Source of the DNA: an uncultured Candidatus Binatia bacterium
GTDB taxonomy: Bacteria; Desulfobacterota; Binatia; UBA9968; JAJDTQ01
NCBI GenBank assembly: GCA_965215605.1
Contig: OZ244070.1
Coordinates: forward strand, 1,568,001 to 1,632,000
Length of the DNA stretch: 64,000 nucleotides
Direction of reading: 5' to 3'
In this document: positions 17,688 to 52,953 of the stretch, in pieces
How the letters are laid out: each line of letters begins with the position of its first letter
Position numbering within the stretch: position 1 is the stretch's first letter
Translations under genes and position numbers: made by a program
Notes under the pieces: model-generated
Told to the model about the DNA's origin: nothing
The model's input: the letters and a program-made list of their open reading frames with translations, nothing else
The model's database searches: none

Positions 17688-17987
17688 CTAGCCGATGCCG
17701 AGCTTTTCCCGAGCTTCTTCGCTGATCCGGCTCGGGTCCCAGGGCGGATCCCACACGAGGTCCACGTTGGCTTCCTTGACGCCGGGGATCTCCATGATCA
17801 GGGACTGGGCGTTGGAGGCGATCATGCCGCCCATGCCGCATCCCGGCGCGGTCAGGGTCATCTTGACCGCCACGGCGCCGTCCTCGACCTCGACGTCGTA
17901 GACCAGGCCGAGGTCCACGATGTTCACCGGGATCTCGGGGTCGTAACAGTCCTGCAGCGCTTCGTAGACCTGTTCCTTGGTAATCAT
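17688..17987 (-). CDS. DUF59/SufT metal-sulfur cluster assembly factor
   Basis: DPEIPVNIVDLGLVY, MTLTAPGC, WDPPW motifs. Confidence 0.9.
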   Translation of the reverse strand: MITKEQVYEALQDCYDPEIPVNIVDLGLVYDVEVEDGAVAVKMTLTAPGCGMGGMIASNAQSLIMEIPGVKEANVDLVWDPPWDPSRISEEAREKLGIG

Positions 17988-18307
17988 TTCGCCTCCTGCT
18001 CGACTTCTTCACACTCGCTGCACGGGCACAACGAACGCAGATAGTCGAAGGTATAGATCCCGGTCATGTGCCCGTCGCTCCAGCGGAAACAGACCGCGTA
18101 GTTGCCCACCGGCTCGATTGCCTCGAGGCCGGCATCGGGTACCTCCACGAAGCGCTTCTCAATCGCGGCCTCGTGCCCTTGGCAAAGCGCGCACGGGCAG
18201 TAGCCCCTCAGGTGCTCCCTGGGATACTCGCCCGAGTGCCCGTCGTCCCAGGTGATGCGGACGATGCCCTGGGCCTTGACGTGATTGATCTCTACGGGAA
18301 CAGCCAC
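17984..18307 (-). CDS. DUF971 (GBBH-like N-terminal) zinc-binding protein
   Basis: WDDGH, LRGYCPCALC, VGNYA, WSDGHxTGIY motifs. Confidence 0.88.
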   Translation of the reverse strand: MAVPVEINHVKAQGIVRITWDDGHSGEYPREHLRGYCPCALCQGHEAAIEKRFVEVPDAGLEAIEPVGNYAVCFRWSDGHMTGIYTFDYLRSLCPCSECEEVEQEAK

Positions 18308-39777: not shown

Positions 39778-39799
39778 GTTCACGAACGCTCCAAAAGGT

Positions 39800-40618
39800 T
39801 CACCCGTCGAGAAGAAACCCCTTGCGGTGGTCCAGCGCCGGCAGTCTGCGGCGTACCTCGTCCAGGTAGGCGAGGTCGACGGCGGCCAGCACCAGGCCCG
39901 GCTCGGCGCCGGCCTCGGCGATGACCTTGCCCCAAGGGTCGACGATCATGGAATGGCCGTAGGCTTCCATGCTGGCGGGGTGGCGGCCGCTCTGGTCCGG
40001 GGCGATGATGTACACTTGGTTCTCGATGGCCCGGGCGCGCAGCAGCGTCTCCCAGTGGGCGCGGCCCGTGGGCACGGTGAACACCGAGGGCACGAAGACC
40101 ACCCTGGCGCCGGCGGCGGCGAGACGGCGGTAGAGCTCCGGGAAACGCAGGTCGTAGCACACCGACAGCCCCATGGGGCACAGCGGCGTGTCCGCCACCA
40201 CCACGGCGTCGCCGGGCCGGCGGTACTCGGATTCGCGGATGGGGTCCTCGCCCTCGATGTCCACGTCGAACAGGTGGATCTTCCGGTACTTGGCGACGAT
40301 GCCGGTTCCCGGCCCGATGAGGACGCTGGTGTTGTAGGCGCGGCCGGCCGTGTCCGCGGCCTCCAGGACCGACCCGGCCAGAAGATACAAACCCAGCTCG
40401 CCAGCCACCGCGCTCATGCGTTCCGTGGAAGGCCCGGGCACCGGCTCGGCGTGGGCCGCCGTTTCCGCGCCGCGCCCACGCCAGTTGAAGACCTCCGGCA
40501 GCACCACGAGCCGTGCTCCCTCGGCATGGGCCCGGCGAATCCATCCCTCGGCTTCCCGAAGATTCGCCTCCTTGTCCGATGTGGCCAGCATCTGGACGGC
40601 TGCCGCGACAAATTGCAT
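39800..40618 (-). CDS. Nitrilase-superfamily C-N hydrolase (Nit1/deaminated-glutathione amidase-like)
   Basis: LPE, YRKIHLFD, CYDLRFPE triad motifs; HW..LLRARAIENQ. Confidence 0.9.
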   Translation of the reverse strand: MQFVAAAVQMLATSDKEANLREAEGWIRRAHAEGARLVVLPEVFNWRGRGAETAAHAEPVPGPSTERMSAVAGELGLYLLAGSVLEAADTAGRAYNTSVLIGPGTGIVAKYRKIHLFDVDIEGEDPIRESEYRRPGDAVVVADTPLCPMGLSVCYDLRFPELYRRLAAAGARVVFVPSVFTVPTGRAHWETLLRARAIENQVYIIAPDQSGRHPASMEAYGHSMIVDPWGKVIAEAGAEPGLVLAAVDLAYLDEVRRRLPALDHRKGFLLDG

Positions 40619-40675
40619 CTATCCTCACCAACACCATGCATGACAACCCGGCCGGAAGGGTGATAATATCAGGGG

Positions 40676-40963
40676 ATGGCTGGAAAGACTCCATCCAGGG
40701 ACAATCCGCAGGAGAAACTGTTCCGGGAACTTCGGAGCTATGCGGAGCAGCAGTGCGGGATCCAGGTCCGGTGCGAACGGCTGACGCGCGAGTTCGGCTA
40801 CAGCGTGCGCAGCGGCGCCTGCATGGTCAACGGGAAGAAGTGGGTGATCGTGGACCGGGCGCTCCCGGCCCGTGACCGGATGGATGTTCTGGCCGACGAG
40901 ATCAAACAGACCGTGGACGCCAACCGCGAGATACCGCCCAACATCCGGGCGCTCCTGCGCTAG
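40676..40963 (+). CDS. Conserved-looking small hypothetical protein
   Basis: 95-aa ORF with host-like codon use, divergent from the nitrilase gene. Confidence 0.6.
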   Translation: MAGKTPSRDNPQEKLFRELRSYAEQQCGIQVRCERLTREFGYSVRSGACMVNGKKWVIVDRALPARDRMDVLADEIKQTVDANREIPPNIRALLR

Positions 40964-41203
40964 TTCCTCTGGGTAACCCACTACTCCTTCGGTTTCCGAG
41001 ACGCCACGGGTCTGCCCACGACGCCTGCAAGCATCCCCGAATCACGGGCCTCATCACTCTTCCACGACACAGAACGTTGTCTTCCGGCGTCGCCACTGTC
41101 CATCGCGAAGAGAGCGGGCTGGGGAGCGGCCTTGTCGCCATGGGGAACACCATTGACGAGGCAATGACACCGAGGAACCGCAGGCCGGCAGGCAGGCATC
41201 TGC

Positions 41204-42688
41204 CTACTTCATGAAGAAGCCCAGCGAGCCGGTGGTGTAGTCGAGCAACGGCCCCCAGTACACCCCCAGCACCAGGGTCAGCACCACGAGGGCTCCGAGC
41301 AGCGGCAGCGCGCTCGGGGTGGCGGCCACCGGACCGTCCTCGGGAGTGGGAGCGTCCAGGAACATGGTGCGGACGATCCGCACGTAGTAGTACAGCGAGA
41401 TGACCGTGTTGAGGAGGGCCACCACCGCGAGCACGTAGAACCCGGCGTGGATGATGGCGGCGAAGAGCAGGAACTTGCCGATGAATCCCGCCAGGGGCGG
41501 CAGGCCGGTGAGGGAGAAGAGGAACACCCCCATGCAGATGGCCGGGAACGCGGCGCCGCGCCAAGCCAGCCCGCGGTAGGCCTCCATGTCCTCGCGTCCG
41601 GTGGCGTTGGCCACCACCATCACCACCAGGAATGCCCCCAGGTTCATGATCAGGTACACCACCACGTAGAACAGCATGGCGGTGAGCCCGTCGTTGTTCA
41701 GCACCACCAGACCCATCATGATGTAGCCCGCGTGGGCGATGCCGGAGTAGGCCAGCAGCCGCTTGACGTTGTTCTGGTTGAGGGCCGAGAGGTTGCCCCA
41801 GGTCATGGTGACGATGCTCAGGACCACCAGAAGGTCCGTCCACTGCAACGCGGGAAACGCCTGGAACGTCCAGATCCCTTCCTGTCCCAGGGTGGACACG
41901 GCCGGGTAGAAGAAGCGGATCAGGATGGCCAGACCGGCGGCGTTGGAGGCCACCGAAAGGAAACCGGTGAAGGGCGTCGGAGCCCCCTGGTACACGTCCG
42001 GCGACCACATGTGGAAGGGCGCGAAGGCCATCTTGTAGCCGAACCCGGCCAGGATGAACACGAAGGCGATGAAAAGGCCGGCCTGATTGCCGTCGCCCTG
42101 GGATATGGCCGCGTTGATGGCGGCGTAGTCCAGGCTGCCGGCCATGCCGAACACCCAACTCATGCCGTAGATCATGGTGCCGGAGGCCACCCCGCCGTAG
42201 ATCAGGTACTTGAGCGCCGCTTCCGCCGAGCGCCGGTTGTGCGGCAGCATACCGGTCAGGATGTAGGACGTCAGGCTCACCAGCTCCAGGCCGAGGTAGG
42301 CCATCAGCAGGTTGTTGCCCGAGGCCATGAAGAACATGCCGAAGCCGCAGGTCAGCAGCACGATGTAGTACTCGCCCAGGTGTACCTGCCGGACCTCGCC
42401 GGAACCGATGGACATCCAGATGGCGGCCACCAGCGCCACCAGGGTCAGCACCTTGAAGAACAGGGCGAAGTTGTCCAGCGCCACCATGCGGTGGAAGAGC
42501 AGCGTGGGCTCCGTGCCGTAAAGCTCCACGGTGGCGCCCAGGGCGGCCAGGCATCCGGCCGCGCCCACGTAGGCCAAGAGCCGCTTGTTGGCCACCACCA
42601 GGTCCAGGACCGTCAGCAGGATGATGGTTCCCGCGAGGACGATCTCCGGATGGAACAGCTTGAGGCTTGCGAGGTTACCGAGGTCCAT
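41204..42688 (-). CDS. nuoN: NADH-quinone oxidoreductase subunit N
   Basis: EAALKY, PFHMWSPDVYQGAP, KRLLAYSGIAHAGY motifs. Confidence 0.95.
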   Translation of the reverse strand: MDLGNLASLKLFHPEIVLAGTIILLTVLDLVVANKRLLAYVGAAGCLAALGATVELYGTEPTLLFHRMVALDNFALFFKVLTLVALVAAIWMSIGSGEVRQVHLGEYYIVLLTCGFGMFFMASGNNLLMAYLGLELVSLTSYILTGMLPHNRRSAEAALKYLIYGGVASGTMIYGMSWVFGMAGSLDYAAINAAISQGDGNQAGLFIAFVFILAGFGYKMAFAPFHMWSPDVYQGAPTPFTGFLSVASNAAGLAILIRFFYPAVSTLGQEGIWTFQAFPALQWTDLLVVLSIVTMTWGNLSALNQNNVKRLLAYSGIAHAGYIMMGLVVLNNDGLTAMLFYVVVYLIMNLGAFLVVMVVANATGREDMEAYRGLAWRGAAFPAICMGVFLFSLTGLPPLAGFIGKFLLFAAIIHAGFYVLAVVALLNTVISLYYYVRIVRTMFLDAPTPEDGPVAATPSALPLLGALVVLTLVLGVYWGPLLDYTTGSLGFFMK

Positions 42689-42694
42689 TTTGCG

Positions 42695-44215
42695 CTACGA
42701 CAGGTGCGAGATCACCATCTGGTTGATGTTGTTGAGCGAGGCCTGGAGCAGGTCGAGCACCACCCGCGGGTAGACGCCGACGATGACCACGATCACTCCC
42801 AGCGGGAACAGCGTGAAGATCTCGCGGCCGTTGATGTCCGGCAGCGAACGGTACTTCTCGTTGGGCGGGCCGAGATAGACGCGCTGCATCATCCACAGCA
42901 TGTAGCCCGCGGTGATGACGATGCCCAGGGCCGCGATGATGGTCAGCGCATGGTACCTGGGCCAGGCCCCCAGCAGCACCAGCACCTCGGAGACGAAGCC
43001 CGAGAGCCCCGGAAGCCCCATGGAGGCGAAGAACGCCAGTGCCGTGAAACCAGCGTACACCGGCATGATGCCCGCCAGCCCGCCGAAGCCGTCGATGTCG
43101 CGGTGATGCGCACGGTCGTAGATCACGCCCACGAGCAGGAAGAGCATGGCGGTGATGGTGCCGTGGTTGAACATCTGCAGCACCGCGCCGTTGATGCCCT
43201 GGGTGTTGAAGGCCGCCATCCCCAGCATGACGTAGCCCATGTGGCTGACGCTGGAGTAGGCCACCAGCTTCTTCATGTCCGTCTGCGCCATGGCGCAGAG
43301 GCCGCCGTAGACGATGTTCCAGGCGCCGAGGGCGGCCAGGAACCAGAACGCGAGGTCGGCGGTGGCCGCCGGCAGCATCGGGTAATTGATCCGCAGGATG
43401 CCGTAGGTGCCCATCTTCAGGAGGATGCCCGCCAGAATCACGGAGATGGCGGTGGGCGCTTCCACGTGGGCGTCGGGCAGCCAGGTGTGGAACGGGAAGG
43501 CCGGGATCTTGATGGCGAAGCCGATGAACAGCGCCATCCACACCACATGCTGGAAGCCCCAGCCCCACACGTTGAACGGCCACATGGCCAGCGGCGTGGT
43601 GCTGTAGAGGCTGCTCCGGTCCATGAGCTTGGTCATGTCGAAGGTGTTGGGCTCGGAGTAGAAGTAGAGCGCCAGGATCGCGACCAGCATGAGCACGCTG
43701 CCCAGCAGCGTGTAGAGGAAGAACTTGATGGCGGCGTATTCCTTCCGCGGGCCGCCCCAGATGCCGATGAGGAAGTACATGGGAAGCAGCATGACTTCCC
43801 AGAAGACGTAGAAGAGCACGAAATCCAGCGCCACGAACACACCTGTCATGCCGGTGTCCAGGAGCAGGAACAGCGCGAAATAACCCTTGACCCCCTTGTC
43901 GATGCCCCAGGAAGCGAAGATGCAGAGAAAGGAGAGCAACGCCGTCAGCAGCACCATGGAGACGCTGAGGCCGTCGACCCCGATGAAGTATTCGATGTTG
44001 AACGCGGGGATCCAGGCTGCCCGCTCGACGAACTGCATGCCGGCGGTGGTGGTGTCGAAATTGGCGTACAGCCAGACCCCCAGTATGAGCGGCGGCACCG
44101 TGGCCGCGGCCGAAACCCAGCGAATGAGATCATGGCGCCCGCTGGGCAGGATCAGCACCACCAGCATCCCGGCCAGGGGGAAGAAGACCATGTAGCTCAG
44201 CACATGTTCGGTCAT
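42695..44215 (-). CDS. nuoM: NADH-quinone oxidoreductase subunit M
   Basis: HTWLPDAHVEAPT, KLVAYSSVSHMG motifs. Confidence 0.96.
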   Translation of the reverse strand: MTEHVLSYMVFFPLAGMLVVLILPSGRHDLIRWVSAAATVPPLILGVWLYANFDTTTAGMQFVERAAWIPAFNIEYFIGVDGLSVSMVLLTALLSFLCIFASWGIDKGVKGYFALFLLLDTGMTGVFVALDFVLFYVFWEVMLLPMYFLIGIWGGPRKEYAAIKFFLYTLLGSVLMLVAILALYFYSEPNTFDMTKLMDRSSLYSTTPLAMWPFNVWGWGFQHVVWMALFIGFAIKIPAFPFHTWLPDAHVEAPTAISVILAGILLKMGTYGILRINYPMLPAATADLAFWFLAALGAWNIVYGGLCAMAQTDMKKLVAYSSVSHMGYVMLGMAAFNTQGINGAVLQMFNHGTITAMLFLLVGVIYDRAHHRDIDGFGGLAGIMPVYAGFTALAFFASMGLPGLSGFVSEVLVLLGAWPRYHALTIIAALGIVITAGYMLWMMQRVYLGPPNEKYRSLPDINGREIFTLFPLGVIVVIVGVYPRVVLDLLQASLNNINQMVISHLS

Positions 44216-44252
44216 TTTCGCATCTCTCCTATCCGACTCTCTCCGATCTGAA

Positions 44253-46286
44253 TCAGCTCCAGTAGCGCAGCTTGACGATCAGGGCGACGACCACGGCTCC
44301 TACCACCACGTAGAGGTAGCTGTTGATGTTCCCGGTCTGGACCCTGCGGAAATTGTTGCCCACCGCGAAGGTCACGTTGGCCACCGCGTTGACCAGCATG
44401 TCGATGACGTACCTGTCGAACAGGCCGTTGAACCAGGAAATGACGATGGTGACCCTGGCCGTTCCATCCACGATGGTGTCGATGATGTAGCGGTCGAACG
44501 CCGCTCCGATCCGCGCCAGCAGCAAGGTGCCGCCGACGAAGACGAACTGGTAGACCTCGTCCACGTAGTACTTGTTGAACAATATGCGGTACGCGAATCC
44601 CTTGGCCTCCGGCGACTCATCCCGGGACGGGGTGCGGACGTAGTACAGGAACCACGCCAGCGCCACCCCCGCGGCGGCGGCGGCAATGGACACGCTCATG
44701 ACCCCGATCTCTTCCATCACCGCATGATGCTCGCCATGGGGGACGTGGATCACCGGATCGAGCCACTGGTCGAGCATGCTGCCGCCCATGAACGCCGGCA
44801 GCCCAAGGTAGCCCACGACGACCGAGCCGGCCGCGAGGATCCACAGCGGCCAGGTCATGATCTTCGGAGACTCGTGCAGGTGCTCCTGCACGTGGTGGTC
44901 GGCGCGGCATTCGCCGAAGAACACCATGAAGAACTGGCGGAACATGTAGAAGGCCGTGAGCCCCGCCACGAACACCGCCACGCCCCAGAGCAACTGGTTG
45001 TGAGTGGCCCAGGCCTGCCACAGGATCGCGTCCTTGGAGAAGAAGCCCGCCAGAAACGGCGTTCCGGCAATGGCCAGGACCGCGATGGCGAAGGTCCGGA
45101 AGGTCGCCGGCATCACCTTCCTCAAGCCGCCCATCTGCCGCATGTCCTGCTCCCCCTGCATGGCGTGGATGATGCTTCCGGAGCCGAGGAAGAGACAGGC
45201 CTTGAAGAACGCGTGGGTCAGCAGATGGAAGACGCCGGCGGAGTAGGCGGTCACCCCCATGGCCAGGAACATGTAGCCGAGCTGGCTGATGGTGGAGTAG
45301 GCCAGCACCCGCTTGATGTCGGTCTGGGTCACGGCGACGGTGGCGGCGAAAAAGGCCGTGGCGGCTCCCACCACCGCGATGATCTGCAGGGTCGCGGGGG
45401 CCGCCGAGAACAGCCCGTTGAGCCGCGCGATCATGTAGACCCCGGCCGTCACCATGGTGGCGGCGTGGATCAGCGCGCTCACGGGGGTCGGGCCCTGCAT
45501 GGCGTCCGGCAACCACACGTAGAGCGGGATCTGCGCCGACTTGCCGGTGGCGCCGATGAACAGCAGGATGGTCACGAGCGTCGCCACGCCGACGCCCCAG
45601 AGCTCCAGGTTGGCCAGGAGCCCCACGTGCTCCGCGATCTCGCGGAACACCAGCGTGCCCTGGCCTTGCCCGGACAACGTCCAGTAGAGCAGGAAGATGC
45701 CCAGCACGAAGCCGAAGTCGCCGATCCGGTTGACGATGAAGGCCTTGTTGCCGGCCCGGGTGTTGGTGTGGTCGGTGTACCAGAAGCCGATGAGCGCCCA
45801 GGAGCACAGCCCCACGCCCTCCCAGCCCACGAACATCACGAGCAGGTTGTCGCCGGTCACCAGCAGGAGCATGGAGAAGGTGAACAGGTTCAGGTAGGCG
45901 AAGTAGCGCCACATGGACCGGTCGTCGTGCATGTAGCCGATGGAGTAGAAGTGGATCAGTCCGCCGATGCCGCTCACCACCAGGATCATGATGGCCGACA
46001 GCGGGTCCACCCAGAACGCCACGTCCACGCTGAAGGAGCCCATGGGGATCCACGTGTAGAACGGGTCGATGAGGAAGCGTTCCTTTGCCGGCAGCGCCAG
46101 CAGCCGGCCGAAGGCCCACAGCGAGAGCAGGAAGGACAGGGTCACCGGGGCGCAGGCGATGAAGGCCACCATGCGCTTGCCCGCGCGTTCCTGTATGCGC
46201 GCCCCGAGCAGACCGTTCACCGCCGCGCCCAGCAGCGGGAACAGCACGATCCAGCGCAGAAAATCGGTTTGAACGGGGTGATCCAT
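44253..46286 (-). CDS. nuoL: NADH-quinone oxidoreductase subunit L
   Basis: GKSAQIPLYVWLPDAMQGPTPVSALIHAATMV motif. Confidence 0.97.
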   Translation of the reverse strand: MDHPVQTDFLRWIVLFPLLGAAVNGLLGARIQERAGKRMVAFIACAPVTLSFLLSLWAFGRLLALPAKERFLIDPFYTWIPMGSFSVDVAFWVDPLSAIMILVVSGIGGLIHFYSIGYMHDDRSMWRYFAYLNLFTFSMLLLVTGDNLLVMFVGWEGVGLCSWALIGFWYTDHTNTRAGNKAFIVNRIGDFGFVLGIFLLYWTLSGQGQGTLVFREIAEHVGLLANLELWGVGVATLVTILLFIGATGKSAQIPLYVWLPDAMQGPTPVSALIHAATMVTAGVYMIARLNGLFSAAPATLQIIAVVGAATAFFAATVAVTQTDIKRVLAYSTISQLGYMFLAMGVTAYSAGVFHLLTHAFFKACLFLGSGSIIHAMQGEQDMRQMGGLRKVMPATFRTFAIAVLAIAGTPFLAGFFSKDAILWQAWATHNQLLWGVAVFVAGLTAFYMFRQFFMVFFGECRADHHVQEHLHESPKIMTWPLWILAAGSVVVGYLGLPAFMGGSMLDQWLDPVIHVPHGEHHAVMEEIGVMSVSIAAAAAGVALAWFLYYVRTPSRDESPEAKGFAYRILFNKYYVDEVYQFVFVGGTLLLARIGAAFDRYIIDTIVDGTARVTIVISWFNGLFDRYVIDMLVNAVANVTFAVGNNFRRVQTGNINSYLYVVVGAVVVALIVKLRYWS

Positions 46287-46322
46287 GGCGAAGCTACTCG
46301 TGAAGGCTGACGAATCGGCCGG

Positions 46323-46655
46323 CTAATCCTTGAGCGTCTCGGTGGCCTCGACGTCGATGGTGGCAAAGAGCTGATAGATGGCGAGGACGATGGCCAAGCC
46401 GATGGCGGCCTCGGACGCCGCCAGCATGATGATGAAAACGGTGTAGATCTGCCCGTCGACGCTTCCGGTGCTGAAGTGCGAGAACGCGACGTAGTTCAGG
46501 CCGGCGGAGTTCAGGATCAGCTCGACTCCCAGAAGGATGCTGATGGCGTTGCGCCGGGTGAGAACGATGTAGATGCCCAGCGCGAACAGGATGCCCGCCA
46601 CCACCAGGTAGTGCTCCAGTCCGACCTTCGTCAACATTGCAACGTATGCAGCCAT
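46323..46655 (-). CDS. nuoK: NADH-quinone oxidoreductase subunit K (alternative start 46637)
   Basis: RRN...ELILN...AASEAAIGLA motifs. Confidence 0.93.
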   Translation of the reverse strand: MAAYVAMLTKVGLEHYLVVAGILFALGIYIVLTRRNAISILLGVELILNSAGLNYVAFSHFSTGSVDGQIYTVFIIMLAASEAAIGLAIVLAIYQLFATIDVEATETLKD

Positions 46656-46666
46656 CTCGCGAAACT

Positions 46667-47173
46667 CTATTCCTTGATTTCCTTGCGCGACAGCGTGATG
46701 GCGCCGATGAGGGCCACCAGCAGCACCACCGCGGCGATCTGGAACGGCAGCAGGTAGTCGCGGAGGAAAAGGTTGCCGATCATCGCCGTGGTGGGCTCGT
46801 ACGCCACTTCCTTGACCTTCACCCAGTCGGTCCGGCCGATGGCGTAGATCAGGATGCCCAGGAACACCGCCACCGCCACGAGCCCGGGAATCCGGCCCAC
46901 CGTGCGGTTGGTGATGTCGATGTCACTGATCCGGTGGGTCAGCATCACCGCGAACAGGATCAGCACCAGAATGCCGCCGACGTAGATCAACACCTGCACC
47001 GCCGCCACGAAGTCCGCGCCCAGGAACACGTAGAGCCCGGCCACGCCGCCGAAGGTGCCCAGCAGCGAAAAGGCCGAATGCACGATGTTGCGCGAGAACG
47101 CCACGATGCAGGCAGACCCGACCACGACGAGCGAAACCAGATAGAAGATGAGGACGTCTAAGGAAATCTCCAT
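46667..47173 (-). CDS. nuoJ: NADH-quinone oxidoreductase subunit J
   Basis: QVLIYVGGILVL, YLLPF motifs. Confidence 0.93.
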   Translation of the reverse strand: MEISLDVLIFYLVSLVVVGSACIVAFSRNIVHSAFSLLGTFGGVAGLYVFLGADFVAAVQVLIYVGGILVLILFAVMLTHRISDIDITNRTVGRIPGLVAVAVFLGILIYAIGRTDWVKVKEVAYEPTTAMIGNLFLRDYLLPFQIAAVVLLVALIGAITLSRKEIKE

Positions 47174-47291
47174 GATCAAAACACCCTTTAACGGGGATAC
47201 TGGCGGCTCGCACAGGCCACGCGCCGTAGCGGCGGGGCCGGGAGCCTGTCCGACGAAGAGTCCTGCGAACCCCGAGATGGCCGGCGGACCG

Positions 47292-47831
47292 TCAGTTTTC
47301 CGGCTCGGCCACCTCGTCCATGTACCTCTTTCCGATTTCCACCTTCTGAATCATTCGGGGTTCCGTCTCCCCACCCTTCTGCGGCTTGTAAAGAGGCACT
47401 TTCTCGGTGATGAAATGCCGCACCAGACCGGCGGGATTGTTGCAGGCGCCCTCGAACTCCTGCGTGTGACGGATGGATCCCGTGGGGCAGGCCTCCATGC
47501 ACAGCCCACAATACATGCACTTGCATATGTCGATGTCAAATTGGCTGAAGTCGCGCTGCTTCGTCTCCTTGTTCATCTCGATGCCGATGGCGATGCAGTT
47601 GATCGGGCACACCCGCTCACACGCCAGGCAGCCGGTGCAGATGTCCATGTCGACCTCGAGGATGCCCCGGTAGCGCAACGGCAGGGTCGCCTGCACCTGC
47701 TGCGCGATGCGGTCGGGATACTGCACCGTCGACGGCTCGCGGACGAAGTGGGAGAAGGTGATGGTCATCCCCTCGAAGATGCTCACCACCGTGTCTTTGA
47801 CGTTCTGGAAGTATTCGATGACTCCGTTCAT
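47292..47831 (-). CDS. nuoI: NADH-quinone oxidoreductase subunit I
   Basis: TVQYP; two CxxCxxCxxxCP motifs; true start MNGVIEY. Confidence 0.92.
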   Translation of the reverse strand: MNGVIEYFQNVKDTVVSIFEGMTITFSHFVREPSTVQYPDRIAQQVQATLPLRYRGILEVDMDICTGCLACERVCPINCIAIGIEMNKETKQRDFSQFDIDICKCMYCGLCMEACPTGSIRHTQEFEGACNNPAGLVRHFITEKVPLYKPQKGGETEPRMIQKVEIGKRYMDEVAEPEN

Positions 47832-47857
47832 GGACGTTTCCCCGCCGATCCTGGATC

Positions 47858-49060
47858 CTACACGTACGGCTTGAAATAGAGGGTGGGGCGCGAGTGCATG
47901 ATCTGGAAGACCACCCGCCAAACGAAATAAAGCACGACGAGACACGACACCGCCAACGTGGCGAGCGTCAACGTCATGTTCCCCTCGGGCCAGATCACCA
48001 AGAACAGGATGGTGCCGAAGAGACAGATGAACGTGATGGGCACCATGTACTTCCAGCACATGGCCATGAGCTGGTCCACCCGCACCCGCGGCAGGGTGCC
48101 GCGCACCCACATGGCGACGAAGGCCCAGAGATACGCCTTGACGAAGAAAACCGCGAACTCCAGCACGCCCTTGAGCAGCGGGTGTTCGGCCATGGTCATC
48201 CCGAAGATCGTCGCCGGGATCTGCCAGCCGCCGAGGAACAGGGTCGCGGCAATGGCGCCGATGACATACAGGTTGCCCCACTCCGCGAAGAAGAAGAACA
48301 GGAAGCGCATGCCGCTGTACTCGGTGACGTAGCCGGCCACCAGCTCGGATTCGGCTTCGGGAATGTCGAACGGCGTGCGGTTGCCCTCGGCCAACGCGGA
48401 AATGAAGAACATGAAAAAGGCGACCAGCGTGAAGGGGTTGTAGAAGATGAACCACTCCCAGGGGGCCCAGCCCTGGGCCTGGATGATCCCCTGCATGCTG
48501 AGCGTGCCCGACAGGAAGATCACCGTGAGCACGGAAAGGCCGGCGGGGATCTCGTAGCTGACGATCTGCGCGGCCGAGCGCATGCCCCCAAGGAGCGACC
48601 ACTTGTTGTTGGAGGACCAGCCCGCCATCAGGATCCCCACCACCACCAGGGAGGTGATGGCCAACAGATAGAGGATGCCGATGTTGAGGTCCGCGGGGAT
48701 CAGCCAACTGCCGAAGGGGATCACCACGAAGGCGCCCAGGAACCCCGAGAAGACGATGTACGGCGCCAGCAGGAAGAGCTTCCTGTCGGCGGACGCCGGG
48801 ATGATGTCCTCTTTCTGGATGTTCTTGACGCCGTCCGCGAGCCACTGGAGCAAGCCCTGGGGCCCCACCCGGTTGGGGCCGACCCGGGACTGCATGCGCG
48901 CCCAGACGCGCCGTTCCAGCCAACTGGTCACGCCGGCCAGCGGCGCCACGAAGGCGGACAGAACGACGAAGGCCACCGCCACAGCCGCCAGGGCATAGGC
49001 CAGAGCCACCGGAACGGCGCCCGGCAACAACGTCGCGATCAGGTCTTGTACGGTATTCAT
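47858..49060 (-). CDS. nuoH: NADH-quinone oxidoreductase subunit H
   Basis: ERR...GPNRVG, NRTPFDIPEAESELVAG motifs. Confidence 0.96.
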   Translation of the reverse strand: MNTVQDLIATLLPGAVPVALAYALAAVAVAFVVLSAFVAPLAGVTSWLERRVWARMQSRVGPNRVGPQGLLQWLADGVKNIQKEDIIPASADRKLFLLAPYIVFSGFLGAFVVIPFGSWLIPADLNIGILYLLAITSLVVVGILMAGWSSNNKWSLLGGMRSAAQIVSYEIPAGLSVLTVIFLSGTLSMQGIIQAQGWAPWEWFIFYNPFTLVAFFMFFISALAEGNRTPFDIPEAESELVAGYVTEYSGMRFLFFFFAEWGNLYVIGAIAATLFLGGWQIPATIFGMTMAEHPLLKGVLEFAVFFVKAYLWAFVAMWVRGTLPRVRVDQLMAMCWKYMVPITFICLFGTILFLVIWPEGNMTLTLATLAVSCLVVLYFVWRVVFQIMHSRPTLYFKPYV

Positions 49061-49068
49061 CTCTCAGC

Positions 49069-50205
49069 CTAGCGGTCGATCTCGGGAGCGTCCACGTCCA
49101 GGCTCGCGATCAGCGCGATCAGGTCGGCCACCATGATCCCCGGACTGATCTTGTCGATGATGCTCATGGCCGTGAACGAGCCGGTGCGTATCCTCACGCG
49201 GTAGGGGTACTCGCTGCCGTCGCTGACCACGTAGTAGCCCATGTCCCCGCGCGGCGCCTCGATGCGCACGTAGGTCTCGCCCGCCGGCGGCTTGAACTTG
49301 CGCGCCACCTTGGCGATGGCCGGGCCGTCGGGCATCTTGTCGAAGCACTGGCGGAGAATCTTGCAGCTCTCCATCAACTCCCGTATCCGGACGTAGTAGC
49401 GGTCGTAGGAATCGCCCAAGGTGCCGCGCTCGCCGCGTCCCACCGGAACCTCGAAGTCCAGGTCCGGATAGGCCGAGTAGGGAATGTCCCGGCGGATGTC
49501 CCACCGGACCCCGGACGCCCGCAGGTTGGGGCCCACGAGGTTGTACTGGAGCGCGTCCTCCCTGGAGATCACCGCGACGTTGGCCAGCCGCTCGATGAAG
49601 ATCTTGTTGTAGGACAGCAGCCGGTTGTACTCGTCGACGATGGGTTCGAAGTGGTCCAGGAACGCGGTGATGCGCTTGCACGTCTCCGGCTTGATATCGT
49701 AGCCGACGCCGCCGATGCGCAGGTAGTTGTAGGTGAGGCGAGCGCCGCAGATCTCCTCCATGAGGTCATTGATGGTCTCCCGCTCCCGGAGCGCATGCAG
49801 GAAGGGGGTGATGGCGCCGATGTCCTGCCCGAAGGTGCCCACCGCGATGAGGTGACTGGCAATGCGGTTGAGCTCGCAGGCGATGACCCGGCAATACTCG
49901 CCGCGGGGCGGCACCTCGACGTTGGCCAGCCGCTCCGCCGCCATGCAGAAGCCCTGGTTGGCGAACATGGCGGCCAGATAGTCGGCCCGGTCGGTGTAGG
50001 GAACGTAGCCGTGCCAAGTGCACTTCTCGCCGATCTTCTCGATGGAGCGGTGCAGGTAGCCGACGTCCGGGATGGCTTCGTTGATGACCTCCCCGTCCGT
50101 CTTGACCACGAACCGCAGCACCCCGTGGGTGCTCGGATGCTGCGGACCCACGTTCAGGGTCATGTCTTCGGTGTGCAAGCCGGTGCGTTCGGCGACCTCA
50201 GCCAT
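49069..50205 (-). CDS. nuoD: NADH-quinone oxidoreductase subunit D
   Basis: [28 protein letters not shown] motifs; no NiFe CxxC. Confidence 0.95.
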
Positions 50206-50220
50206 GAGTTCCTTCCTTCG

Positions 50221-50727
50221 TCAACGCATGTTCTCCGGAACCAGCGGCTCGCGCTCGGTGCTGATGCCGTCGTACTCTTCCTGCTCCACGAAGTCCTTGC
50301 GCAGGGGATAACCGACCCAGTCTTCCGGCAGCAGGATCCGGCGCAGGTCGGAATGCCCTTCGAAGACGACGCCGAAGAGGTCGAACACCTCCCGCTCGAA
50401 CCAGTTGGCGACCTTCCAGACGTCTTCCACCGTGGCGATCCGGGGCGCATCCCGGTCCACGTCCGCCTTGACCACGATCTCCTGCCGGGGCTCGTAGGAG
50501 TACAGATGGTAGACGACCCGGATGACGTTGTCCGTCGGGAGATCCACCGCGGTGAGGTCGGAGAGCACGCCGAGCTTCAGCGCGTCGTCGTCCCGCAACG
50601 CCAGACAGACCTCCTTGAGGCTGGCCGGTTTCACCTTGAAGAACGGCTCCAGGCCCTGCTCGTCGAGGTCCTCCACGCCGCCGGGGCAAAGCTGTCGGAC
50701 GCGCTCGTGTATCTCTTTTGCCGTCAT
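50221..50727 (-). CDS. nuoC: NADH-quinone oxidoreductase subunit C
   Basis: WFEREVFDLFG..F.GH.DLRRILL...GYPLRKD motif. Confidence 0.95.
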   Translation of the reverse strand: MTAKEIHERVRQLCPGGVEDLDEQGLEPFFKVKPASLKEVCLALRDDDALKLGVLSDLTAVDLPTDNVIRVVYHLYSYEPRQEIVVKADVDRDAPRIATVEDVWKVANWFEREVFDLFGVVFEGHSDLRRILLPEDWVGYPLRKDFVEQEEYDGISTEREPLVPENMR

Positions 50728-50769
50728 GTCGTCGTTACCTGCCTGGTGGCCTGGCCGTCCGCGCCGCCG

Positions 50770-51147
50770 CTAGTTCTTCACCCACTCCAGGTCGCCCTTG
50801 CACCAGTCGTAGATGAGGCCCAGGAACACGATGAGGGTGAAGACGGCGATGGCGCCGAAGGCGAACAGACCGGCGTCGTTCTGAAGCCAGTCGCGGAAGA
50901 CGACGGCCACCGGGAAGATGAAGGCGATCTCCACCTCGAAGATGATGAAGATCAGGGCGATGAAGTAGAACCGGACGTTGAAGTTGACCCACGCGCTTCC
51001 GGACGCGGGCTCGCCGCACTCATAGGTGGAGAGTTTCCTGAGCTGGGGATTGTTGGGCCGCAGCAGGCGGCCGATCAACAGGTTCACCCAGACGAAGGCC
51101 GCACCCAACAAAGTGAAACACAGCACGCTGGCGAAGTCGAAAAGCAT
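50770..51147 (-). CDS. nuoA: NADH-quinone oxidoreductase subunit A
   Basis: YECG, FYFIALIFIIFEVE, KGDLEW motifs. Confidence 0.95.
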   Translation of the reverse strand: MLFDFASVLCFTLLGAAFVWVNLLIGRLLRPNNPQLRKLSTYECGEPASGSAWVNFNVRFYFIALIFIIFEVEIAFIFPVAVVFRDWLQNDAGLFAFGAIAVFTLIVFLGLIYDWCKGDLEWVKN

Positions 51148-51224: not shown

Positions 51225-51353
51225 CAAACCGGCCCCTGCGCTCCGCCGGCCTCCTTACACTGCCCAACCATTCCTGTTACCTTGCTCCCGAGAGTCGCGG
51301 CCCCGGCAATCCACGGCCGCCGCCACCCCGCAAAATGGGAGAGATGAACCGCC

Positions 51354-52346
51354 ATGGGCAAAGTAAGCATCACCGTCGCCTGTTGGGATTATGACCGGAC
51401 ACGCCCCTTGCAGGAGGGCCGTGTCCCCGTGGAAGGGGTCGACCTGACCTACCTGCCGTTCCGCGTGGAGGAGACCTTCTGGCGCATGTTGCGCTACCAG
51501 GACTTCGACGCCGCCGAGATGTCCATGGGCTCCTACCTGATGTCCAAGGACAAGGGAAACCCGCGGTTCGTGGCGATTCCCGTGTTCCCCTCCCGCGCCT
51601 TCCGGCACTCCGGAATCTACATCCATACCGGCTCCGGCATCAAGGAAGCCGGCGATCTCACGGGCAAGCGGGTCGGCGTCCCCGAGTACCAGATGACCGC
51701 GGCCATCTGGCAGCGCGGCATCCTGCAGCACGAGTACGGTGTCGATCTCGAGAAGGTGAACTGGTTCACCGGCGGGGAAGAGACCCCCGGCCGGGAGGAA
51801 AAGCTCCGTCCGGACCTGCCCGACTCCCTTTCCATCACCCCGATCGGGCCGGGGCAGACGCTCTCTTCCATGCTGGAGACCGGCGAGCTCGACGCCCTGA
51901 TCTCGGCCCACATGCCGTCGCCGTTCGTGCGCCGCTCCCCCGGGGTGGCGCGGCTCTTCCCGGACTTCCGTCCGGTGGAAGAGGACTACTTCCGCAAGAC
52001 CGGCATCTTTCCCATCATGCACACCGTGGTGTTTCGGGAGGACGTCTACGAACGCCATCCCTGGGTGGCCCAGAACCTCTACAAGGCCTTCTGCGAGTCG
52101 AAGCGGCTCTGCGCCGAATCCGTCTACGAGTACTCCGCGCTGAAGTACATGCTGGCCTGGTCCATCGAGCAGATGGAAAAGGAGAAGGATCTCATGGGAC
52201 CCGACCCCTGGCCTTACGGGCTCGAAGCCAACCGCCACGTCCTGGAGACGCTGGTGGGCTACGCCCACGAGCAGGGCCTGATCAAGCAGCCGCTCGAGGT
52301 GGACAGCCTGTTCGCGCCGAGCACGCTGAACGAGTTCAAGGTGTAG
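51354..52346 (+). CDS. 4,5-dihydroxyphthalate decarboxylase-like protein (type II periplasmic-binding fold, cytoplasmic)
   Basis: YDRT, EMSM, PVFPSRAFRH, EYQMTA, FPIMH, DPWPYG..AN motifs; no signal peptide. Confidence 0.8.
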   Translation: MGKVSITVACWDYDRTRPLQEGRVPVEGVDLTYLPFRVEETFWRMLRYQDFDAAEMSMGSYLMSKDKGNPRFVAIPVFPSRAFRHSGIYIHTGSGIKEAGDLTGKRVGVPEYQMTAAIWQRGILQHEYGVDLEKVNWFTGGEETPGREEKLRPDLPDSLSITPIGPGQTLSSMLETGELDALISAHMPSPFVRRSPGVARLFPDFRPVEEDYFRKTGIFPIMHTVVFREDVYERHPWVAQNLYKAFCESKRLCAESVYEYSALKYMLAWSIEQMEKEKDLMGPDPWPYGLEANRHVLETLVGYAHEQGLIKQPLEVDSLFAPSTLNEFKV

Positions 52347-52371
52347 GGGCGCCGCCTGAACGGACGACGCC

Positions 52372-52953
52372 ATGTCCGACCCTGACAAACCCGACGTTGA
52401 AGCCCCCGCCTCTGAGGAAGCGGGCGCAGCCGGCGACCCCGCCGTCCAGGAGGTGAAGTGGTGGATCGACACCGGCACCAAGCTCCAGCCGGATAGGGGC
52501 GAGCGGGAGCCCATCGGTGTCATCGAGCGCTGGGCCTTCGAGCTCCTGAAGGACTACCGGCAGGAACAGGCGCTCAAGAACATCGTGGACATCAACGGCC
52601 AGGCCCTGCGCGAGCTCGACACCAACGAAGACCGCTGGGTATACCTCTCGCTGGGCGTCGGCGAGTTCCCCGCCAAGCGCCTCGACCACATCAAGGACTC
52701 CCTTCGAATCCCGCGCTACGCCCGGGCGCTGGCCATCGACGCGGGCTACTCGATCCGCGTCCTGCTCACCGGCGACCCTCCGGGCGATAAGGTGCTGGAA
52801 ATCAACTTCACCGACGCACCCTCGCTCGACTACTGGATCAACGGCGAGTTGATTGAAGAGCGGATGTTCCGCTCCATCGACGACGCCCTCAAGCGCCTGC
52901 GGAACTCGGTTCACAGGTACCTGCGGAAAACTTTGGTCCAGGCAGAACCATGA
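52372..52953 (+). CDS. Hypothetical protein
   Basis: 193-aa ORF with host-like GC3 bias; no recognised motif. Confidence 0.7.
   Translation: MSDPDKPDVEAPASEEAGAAGDPAVQEVKWWIDTGTKLQPDRGEREPIGVIERWAFELLKDYRQEQALKNIVDINGQALRELDTNEDRWVYLSLGVGEFPAKRLDHIKDSLRIPRYARALAIDAGYSIRVLLTGDPPGDKVLEINFTDAPSLDYWINGELIEERMFRSIDDALKRLRNSVHRYLRKTLVQAEP

Follow-up and report, generated by a model that had tools for sequence, protein, structure and literature searches.

The NDH-1 complex of cyanobacteria and chloroplasts is a relative of complex I that does without the subunits NuoE, NuoF and NuoG, receives its electrons from ferredoxin and is encoded by genes distributed over several loci; it contains, in addition, extra subunits that are specific to oxygenic phototrophs (NdhL-S and V). 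We know of no functional complex I-like enzyme that lacks a NuoB/PSST subunit. According to one study (PMC11238625), 11-subunit complex I-like enzymes without NuoEFG represent a widespread type for which the identity of the electron donor is an open question. For the Binatota, a genome paper (PMC8262859) reports complexes I and II in every genome.

The window considered here is a stretch of 64,000 nucleotides (contig OZ244070.1) from the genome of an uncultured Candidatus Binatia bacterium, referred to below as G000; named records place its lineage in Candidatus Binatia. Its open reading frames (ORFs) and their Pfam matches reveal ten contiguous genes on the minus strand between positions 41204 and 51147, in the order nuoA-C-D-H-I-J-K-L-M-N, with no nuoB among them. 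An intact nuoB is located elsewhere in the same genome, and its product and the ten window subunits very probably make up an ordinary 11-subunit NuoEFG-less complex I-like enzyme. An initial annotation of the window had pointed out that a single orphan nuoB at a distant site would reduce the unusual gene order to plain operon splitting; this is indeed what the genome contains, and the locus is a case of operon splitting, not of a new enzyme.

The window operon and the orphan nuoB

The stop codon of nuoA ends at position 50770 and the ATG of nuoC lies at 50727, which leaves a spacer of 42 bp; the gap from nuoD to nuoH measures 8 bp. NuoD contains the motifs GPQHPSTHG (N-terminal site) and YTDRADY, which we take to be part of the quinone site. 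Its C-terminal end reads ...DVDAPEIDR, and the CxxC pairs found in NiFe large subunits are absent from the window NuoD sequence. Two CxxCxxCxxxCP motifs, CTGCLACERVCP and CMYCGLCMEACP, presumably for the binding of 4Fe-4S clusters, occur in NuoI. Profile searches of the genome yielded two matches for NuoB (PF01058), three for NuoE and three for NuoF, none of which is located in the window; since both PF01058 matches lie elsewhere, the window does not hide a fused NuoB. No NuoG-like protein is found among the window genes examined by Pfam, NuoG being a family for which no genome-wide search was made. These results are in agreement with the initial annotation, which had described the operon without nuoB and nuoEFG, the short nuoA-nuoC gap in the absence of any gene hiding a fused NuoB, the direct succession of nuoD and nuoH and the motifs of NuoD and NuoI (with NuoG judged solely from the window genes by Pfam), and which had suggested that NuoB might be encoded elsewhere.

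The orphan nuoB is situated at G000:C1:198238-198741 on the minus strand, 1.42 Mb from nuoA, and is flanked by unrelated genes. Searches of the whole genome reveal exactly two NuoB, two NuoD and two NuoH loci. One set belongs to a canonical nuoA-B-CD-E-F-G-H-I-J-K-L-M-N operon (L007) at C1:~594000-608650, so that one NuoB is left for the window operon. It is thus unnecessary to assume, as had been considered initially, that a NuoB is shared with a second complex I: the canonical complex has its own nuoB, the product of which is only ~44-50% identical to the orphan. The orphan NuoB scores above the NCBIfam equivalog cut-off for NuoB (NF011393, 302 versus 255 bits) and also above the TIGR01957 cut-off, and is 99-100% conserved within the genus. 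It keeps all four cysteine residues, in the motifs ACCAIE (with the tandem CC), GSCSNCGG and GCPP, which correspond to the ligands of cluster N2.

A sigma-70-like promoter-like site and a Shine-Dalgarno sequence precede the orphan gene. On its 3' side, on the same strand (C1:197538-198223; L006:7536-8223), are the genes for a 102-aa Rieske [2Fe-2S] ferredoxin, which is separated from nuoB by 12 bp, and for a 106-aa CGFS Grx4-type monothiol glutaredoxin (Grx) that scores above the Grx4 equivalog cut-off, followed by a gene for a VIT1-family iron transporter. The orphan nuoB is the first gene of this small nuoB-Rieske-Grx4 unit, which has its own promoter-like site. The nuoB-Rieske ferredoxin-Grx trio is present in all 24 genomes of the genus in which the orphan was found (L038-L061), in three named loci of metagenome-assembled genomes (MAGs) and in G161; in most of the genus loci the VIT1-family gene comes next, and a gene for a periplasmic binding protein diverges on the opposite side. 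The suf operon of G000 (Rrf2-sufBCDSUT, at C1:3685736-3691879) contains no nuoB, and the orphan is not adjacent to suf; the Rieske and Grx4 genes are the only iron-sulfur neighbours still beside it. Comparison by eye of the regions that precede nuoA, the orphan nuoB and Rrf2/sufB showed no Rrf2/IscR-like operator common to them; the inspection did not include a systematic motif search and is therefore not evidence of absence.

With the orphan included, the set of eleven subunits (NuoA, B, C, D, H, I, J, K, L, M and N) is complete in the genome. Its N-module subunits NuoE and NuoF are missing, which distinguishes it from a canonical 14-subunit complex I, and the lack of N- and C-terminal CxxC ligands in NuoD distinguishes it from the group 4 membrane-bound [NiFe] hydrogenases of the Ech/Mbh type. 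The same eleven subunits, the absence of an N-module, a NuoD without NiFe ligands, two 4Fe-4S motifs in NuoI and the N2 ligands in NuoB are shared with the 11-subunit NuoEFG-less enzymes; unlike in those enzymes generally, nuoB here lies far outside the operon, together with a Rieske ferredoxin gene and a Grx4 gene. The lack of NuoEFG and the scattering of the genes over different loci are also reminiscent of NDH-1; of its phototroph-specific subunits none was noticed here, although no search was directed at them. The core subunits are homologous to those of the canonical complex I of G000, but the L007 operon, unlike that of the window, encodes NuoE, NuoF, NuoG and a fused NuoCD, and the two complexes are dissimilar in sequence, with NuoD only 39% identical and NuoB conserved to the extent given above.

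By analogy with other 11-subunit enzymes, assembly would bring together a membrane arm consisting of NuoA, H, J, K, L, M and N and a Q-module consisting of NuoC, NuoD and NuoI, with NuoB and its cluster N2 contributed from the orphan locus. Electrons would then pass from a low-potential donor, most likely a ferredoxin, via the clusters of NuoI and then N2 to quinone, and this transfer would be coupled to the pumping of protons. The initial annotation had allowed for a variant enzyme with an unknown donor. The variant part of this proposal falls with the finding of the orphan NuoB. The donor part stands, as it does for all NuoEFG-less enzymes (PMC11238625).

Two further loci of G000 contain N-module-like genes. 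At C1:2118798-2120498 (L187:5799-7499, minus strand) a small NuoE-like ORF precedes an orphan gene for a NuoF-like protein of 410 aa, which matches nuoF_fam best among the NCBIfam models but scores below its cut-off; no other nuo genes are nearby. At C1:2886080-2892970 (L186:2081-8971, plus strand) an aldehyde:ferredoxin oxidoreductase gene is followed by two others, one for a 565-aa protein in which NuoE-like and NuoF-like parts are fused and one for a 975-aa molybdopterin subunit resembling NuoG/FdhA; the cluster of the latter two (C1:2888529-2892970) looks like an NAD-linked formate-dehydrogenase-type system. The genes located provide no evidence for docking of the orphan NuoE-like/NuoF pair or of the formate-dehydrogenase-type cluster onto the window complex.

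Gene order and the relocation of nuoB

To place the split in context, the locus was compared within the order, which includes the family of the window's genome (f1), a neighbouring family (f2) and a sister family (f3). An orthologue of the window NuoC is present in all 41 genomes of the order, and an orphan-type NuoB is detected in 38 of them. In f3 the operon reads nuoA-nuoB-nuoC-nuoD, and the NuoB that it encodes is 89-95% identical to the orphan, as against 46-49% to the canonical NuoB. As judged from coordinates or loci, nuoB lies beside nuoC in 10 of 11 f3 genomes, the eleventh (G038) being fragmented, and in two more, G211 and G217, which makes 12 f3 genomes in all. Outside the order, 17 other families of Candidatus Binatia were sampled with one genome each as the basis for judging the class-wide order, and all 17 genomes show the arrangement A-B-C-D; A-B-C(-D) is observed in nine of nine named Binatia MAG loci. 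The in-operon NuoB of other Binatia is 71-93% identical to the orphan. The order A-B-C-D is therefore ancestral and the direct A-C junction derived in f1 and f2, and the orphan nuoB is orthologous to the nuoB located between nuoA and nuoC elsewhere in the class. The nuoA-nuoC adjacency to which the initial annotation drew attention is a constant feature of the derived loci: among 30 loci compared, nuoA directly precedes nuoC in all 25 of the genus, including that of the window, and in all three of f2.

In f2 the orphan is embedded in the suf operon, an arrangement that G000 does not share. Three genomes (G025, G027 and G029) show it between the gene of an Rrf2-family regulator and sufB, in the order Rrf2-nuoB-sufB-C-D-S-U-T, and in a fourth (G033) the contig ends after Rrf2-nuoB. 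One f3 genus, g3, retains the operon nuoB and has an extra nuoB at the tail of its suf operon, which reads ...sufS-sufU-sufT-sufT-nuoB-ferredoxin in G040 and ...sufT-sufT-nuoB-Rieske-sigma factor-Grx in G026. The suf-tail nuoB of G026 (L153:5843-6304, G026:C207) has suffered an in-frame deletion of 19 residues, in which LTYKMAKRTKLLYDQMPDP is missing, and the same genome keeps an in-operon nuoB. The extra gene is probably a decaying duplicate, as expected if both copies do the same job.

A NuoB tree was calculated from 60 rows and 163 columns after removal of two duplicate loci, a fragment of 69 residues and, from the genus, 13 near-identical rows. A single clade (ultrafast bootstrap, UFBoot, 92; SH-like approximate likelihood ratio test, SH-aLRT, 95) unites the orphans of f1 and f2 with the suf-tail copies of G040 and G026 and excludes the in-operon copies of f3. 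Since both copies persist in one f3 genus, nuoB was most likely first duplicated into the suf neighbourhood, prior to the divergence of the families, and then lost from the operon in f1 and f2, although the order of these events can be given with moderate confidence only. The lineage of f1 and f2 has lost the operon nuoB, its sole kept copy being that in an iron-sulfur-assembly neighbourhood.

A similar arrangement exists outside the class. Among 80 NuoB loci surveyed for orphans beyond the Binatia, five genes with adequate flanks lack nuoA, nuoC and nuoD within 4 kb (L080, L090, L098, L102 and L115). Three of these, L090, L098 and L102, come from Planctomycetota and are arranged as regulator-nuoB-sufC-sufB. 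The corresponding genomes (G219, G220 and G221) each have an A-C-D(-H) operon without nuoB (L192, L195 and L194), and G220 and G221 also hold a second operon with its own nuoB. In the tree, the Planctomycetota orphans group with in-operon NuoB proteins of their own phylum (93/78), and the event is therefore independent of that in Binatia. The Planctomycetota thus resemble G000 in having a nuoB that has left an 11-subunit-type operon for a place with iron-sulfur assembly genes, but differ from it in phylum and origin, and in that the G000 orphan is no longer beside suf. A MAG labelled Myxococcota (G223; L080 and L193) likewise combines a nuoA-nuoC-nuoD locus without nuoB with an orphan nuoB, here with no suf neighbours; the orphan is 74% identical to that of G000, and its neighbours are a kinase/FGE-sulfatase gene and the gene for a sigma-54 activator. 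This may be one more independent split, or the genome may belong to a relative with a wrong label.

Additional NuoB-like genes are observed in other contexts. In G046 (L183:14944-16436) and G208 (L185:12446-13482), from two other Binatia families, a NuoB-like gene and then an Rrf2 gene are located directly upstream of an intact nuoA-B-C-D; the products are 42-45% identical to both NuoB proteins of G000. In G046 a NifU_N (IscU-like) gene precedes the NuoB-like gene, with feoAB and ferritin genes nearby. In an Acidobacteriota MAG (L130:4022-6793) two NuoB-like genes and a NuoI-like stretch adjoin a gene for a PF02636 methyltransferase, a family that includes the complex I assembly factor NDUFAF7.

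Alternative explanations and a possible link with iron-sulfur cluster assembly

The assignment of the orphan NuoB to the window complex starts from the observed gene content, orthology, conservation and intact N2 ligands, and some points weigh against it. The putative link between protein and complex is drawn from genes and sequence. The orphan orthologue is not detected in three of the 41 genomes, G018 (76% complete), G031 (500 contigs) and G038 (440 contigs), which is weak counter-evidence because these assemblies are fragmented or incomplete. The clade on which the duplication and loss are based is only moderately supported, from a bootstrap that did not reach convergence and a protein that is both short and highly conserved; moreover, a third extra copy of f3 (G028, L152) and a partial copy of G026 (L162) fall outside this clade. 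Finally, the repeated placement of nuoB with iron-sulfur assembly genes means that it may have a further function, or another one altogether.

This last point is the basis of the alternative that survives best, which we nevertheless consider improbable. The orphan NuoB would be a paralogue recruited to iron-sulfur biogenesis, as a SUF carrier, acceptor or redox partner, and the window complex would borrow the canonical NuoB or use a different partner. Such a role would be in line with the company of the orphan and extra copies (nuoB-Rieske-Grx4 in the genus, Rrf2-nuoB-sufBCDSU in f2 and sufSU-sufT-sufT-nuoB in g3), with the planctomycete order regulator-nuoB-sufC-sufB, and with the distant NuoB-like genes of G046 and G208, which lie with Rrf2 upstream of nuoA and in G046 also with NifU_N. 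However, the close match of the orphan to bona fide in-operon NuoB, at a score above the equivalog cut-off, is what a NuoB subunit would show, and its near-invariance in the genus is in keeping with a subunit packed tightly into a complex. The NuoB of the canonical complex, which would have to be borrowed, is distant in sequence, and the gene counts correspond to one NuoB per NuoD and NuoH. Furthermore, one extra copy decays where an operon copy coexists (G026), and in Planctomycetota the suf-linked nuoB is accompanied by an A-C-D operon devoid of nuoB in all three genomes checked. Less probable still is an enzyme that works without cluster N2 or has another protein in place of NuoB: it has the absence of nuoB from the operon in its favour and nothing more, and it is contradicted by the intact, dedicated orthologue that is kept in nearly all genomes of the order (38/41).

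An assembly artefact at the nuoA-nuoC junction, which had been named as the circumstance that could invalidate the initial annotation, is refuted for practical purposes by the recurrence of the junction in 28 of 28 loci of f1 and f2, several of them from single-contig genomes, and by contigs of four public runs from three studies (X1, X2, X5 and X16) that bridge positions 50728-50769. The contigs of X1 and X2 show no differences over the spacer, and both runs may correspond to the source sample; the bridging contig of X5 stems from a different study and a close relative. A contig of X16, an RNA library, comes from a relative, is ~93% identical and spans nuoA into nuoC; this run covers 21 of 30 bins of the stretch and is no evidence for transcription of the operon in the present organism.

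Returning to the split operon with a dedicated orphan nuoB, the splitting itself is ordinary, and the interest lies in the repeated placement of nuoB among iron-sulfur assembly genes in different phyla. This placement suggests, without proving it, a functional link of the maturation or regulation of the N2 subunit with SUF. A tentative explanation, to which we would give somewhat less than even chances, is that the relocation of nuoB has been non-random, the gene being drawn to SUF neighbourhoods at least twice independently (in Binatia and in Planctomycetota) and to several positions within Binatia. Selection might have coupled the synthesis of NuoB to the supply of iron-sulfur clusters, via an Rrf2/SufR-type regulator or via translation near SUF, with N2 loaded first and NuoB gating the assembly of the 11-subunit enzyme. 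In a bolder version, offered with the same reserve, the complex would have the co-transcribed Rieske ferredoxin as an interaction partner. A literature search on nuoB with the suf operon returned, among the papers listed, nothing relevant by title or opening of the abstract, and the accessible main text of the Binatota genome paper (PMC8262859) contains no mention of a nuoB relocation, on which its supplementary Text S1 may say more. Binatia add a second phylum to the pattern in which nuoB leaves its operon for iron-sulfur genes, and thereby give rise to a testable idea on the maturation or regulation of the N2 subunit.

The split also has a consequence for genome annotation. Wherever a pipeline or survey scores complex I from co-located genes, the enzyme would be taken as incomplete; the orphan nuoB must be counted. 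In the survey by Spero et al. 2015 (PMC4453560), for example, genomes missing a subunit are scored as being without complex I, and chromosomal placement is used to pick subunits.

Operon map and neighbouring genes

The features of the window operon are collected in Table 1.

Table 1. Positions in the window of the nuo genes, the nuoA-nuoC spacer and the upstream neighbour
Feature	Position	Strand	Description
nuoA	50770-51147	-	125 aa, first gene of the operon; PF00507, E 7.5e-31
nuoA-nuoC spacer	50728-50769	-	42 bp; site of nuoB in relatives (f3 and 17 other families)
nuoC	50221-50727	-	168 aa; PF00329, E 1.8e-43
nuoD	49069-50205	-	378 aa, quinone-site subunit; PF00346, E 8.8e-91; NCBIfam NF004739, 445 bits, above cut-off
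nuoH	47858-49060	-	400 aa; PF00146, E 1e-113
nuoI	47292-47831	-	179 aa; Fer4 families; best NCBIfam matches are NuoI models, below their cut-offs
nuoJ	46667-47179	-	170 aa; PF00499, E 2.5e-39
nuoK	46323-46655	-	110 aa; PF00420, E 1.1e-24
nuoL	44253-46286	-	677 aa; PF00361, PF00662, PF01010
nuoM	42695-44215	-	506 aa; PF00361, E 5.3e-76
nuoN	41204-42688	-	494 aa, last gene of the operon; PF00361, E 4e-69
Divergent neighbour, substrate-binding-protein-like	51354-52346	+	weak PF12974 match; outside the operon, marks its upstream border

A promoter-like site, TTGACC-18-TATAGT, is found upstream of nuoA at 51224-51195. The operon is taken to extend from nuoA to nuoN because the gene upstream of nuoA is the divergent ORF on the plus strand. 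A minus-strand ORF at 51255-52523, which overlaps with it, was rejected as an additional gene, the plus-strand ORF being the better conserved of the two in the genus (89-98% versus 65-89%). Three small ORFs beyond nuoN (40981-41199, 40625-40981 and 39780-40694) were likewise rejected as subunits; they are of low complexity, have no Pfam match and were missing from the two loci inspected for them, L201 of f2 and L202 of f3. Further along the window, on the minus strand at 17694-17993, lies a second SufT-like gene (FeS_assembly_P type), far from suf and ~23 kb from the nuo operon, the product of which is 52% identical to the SufT of G040.

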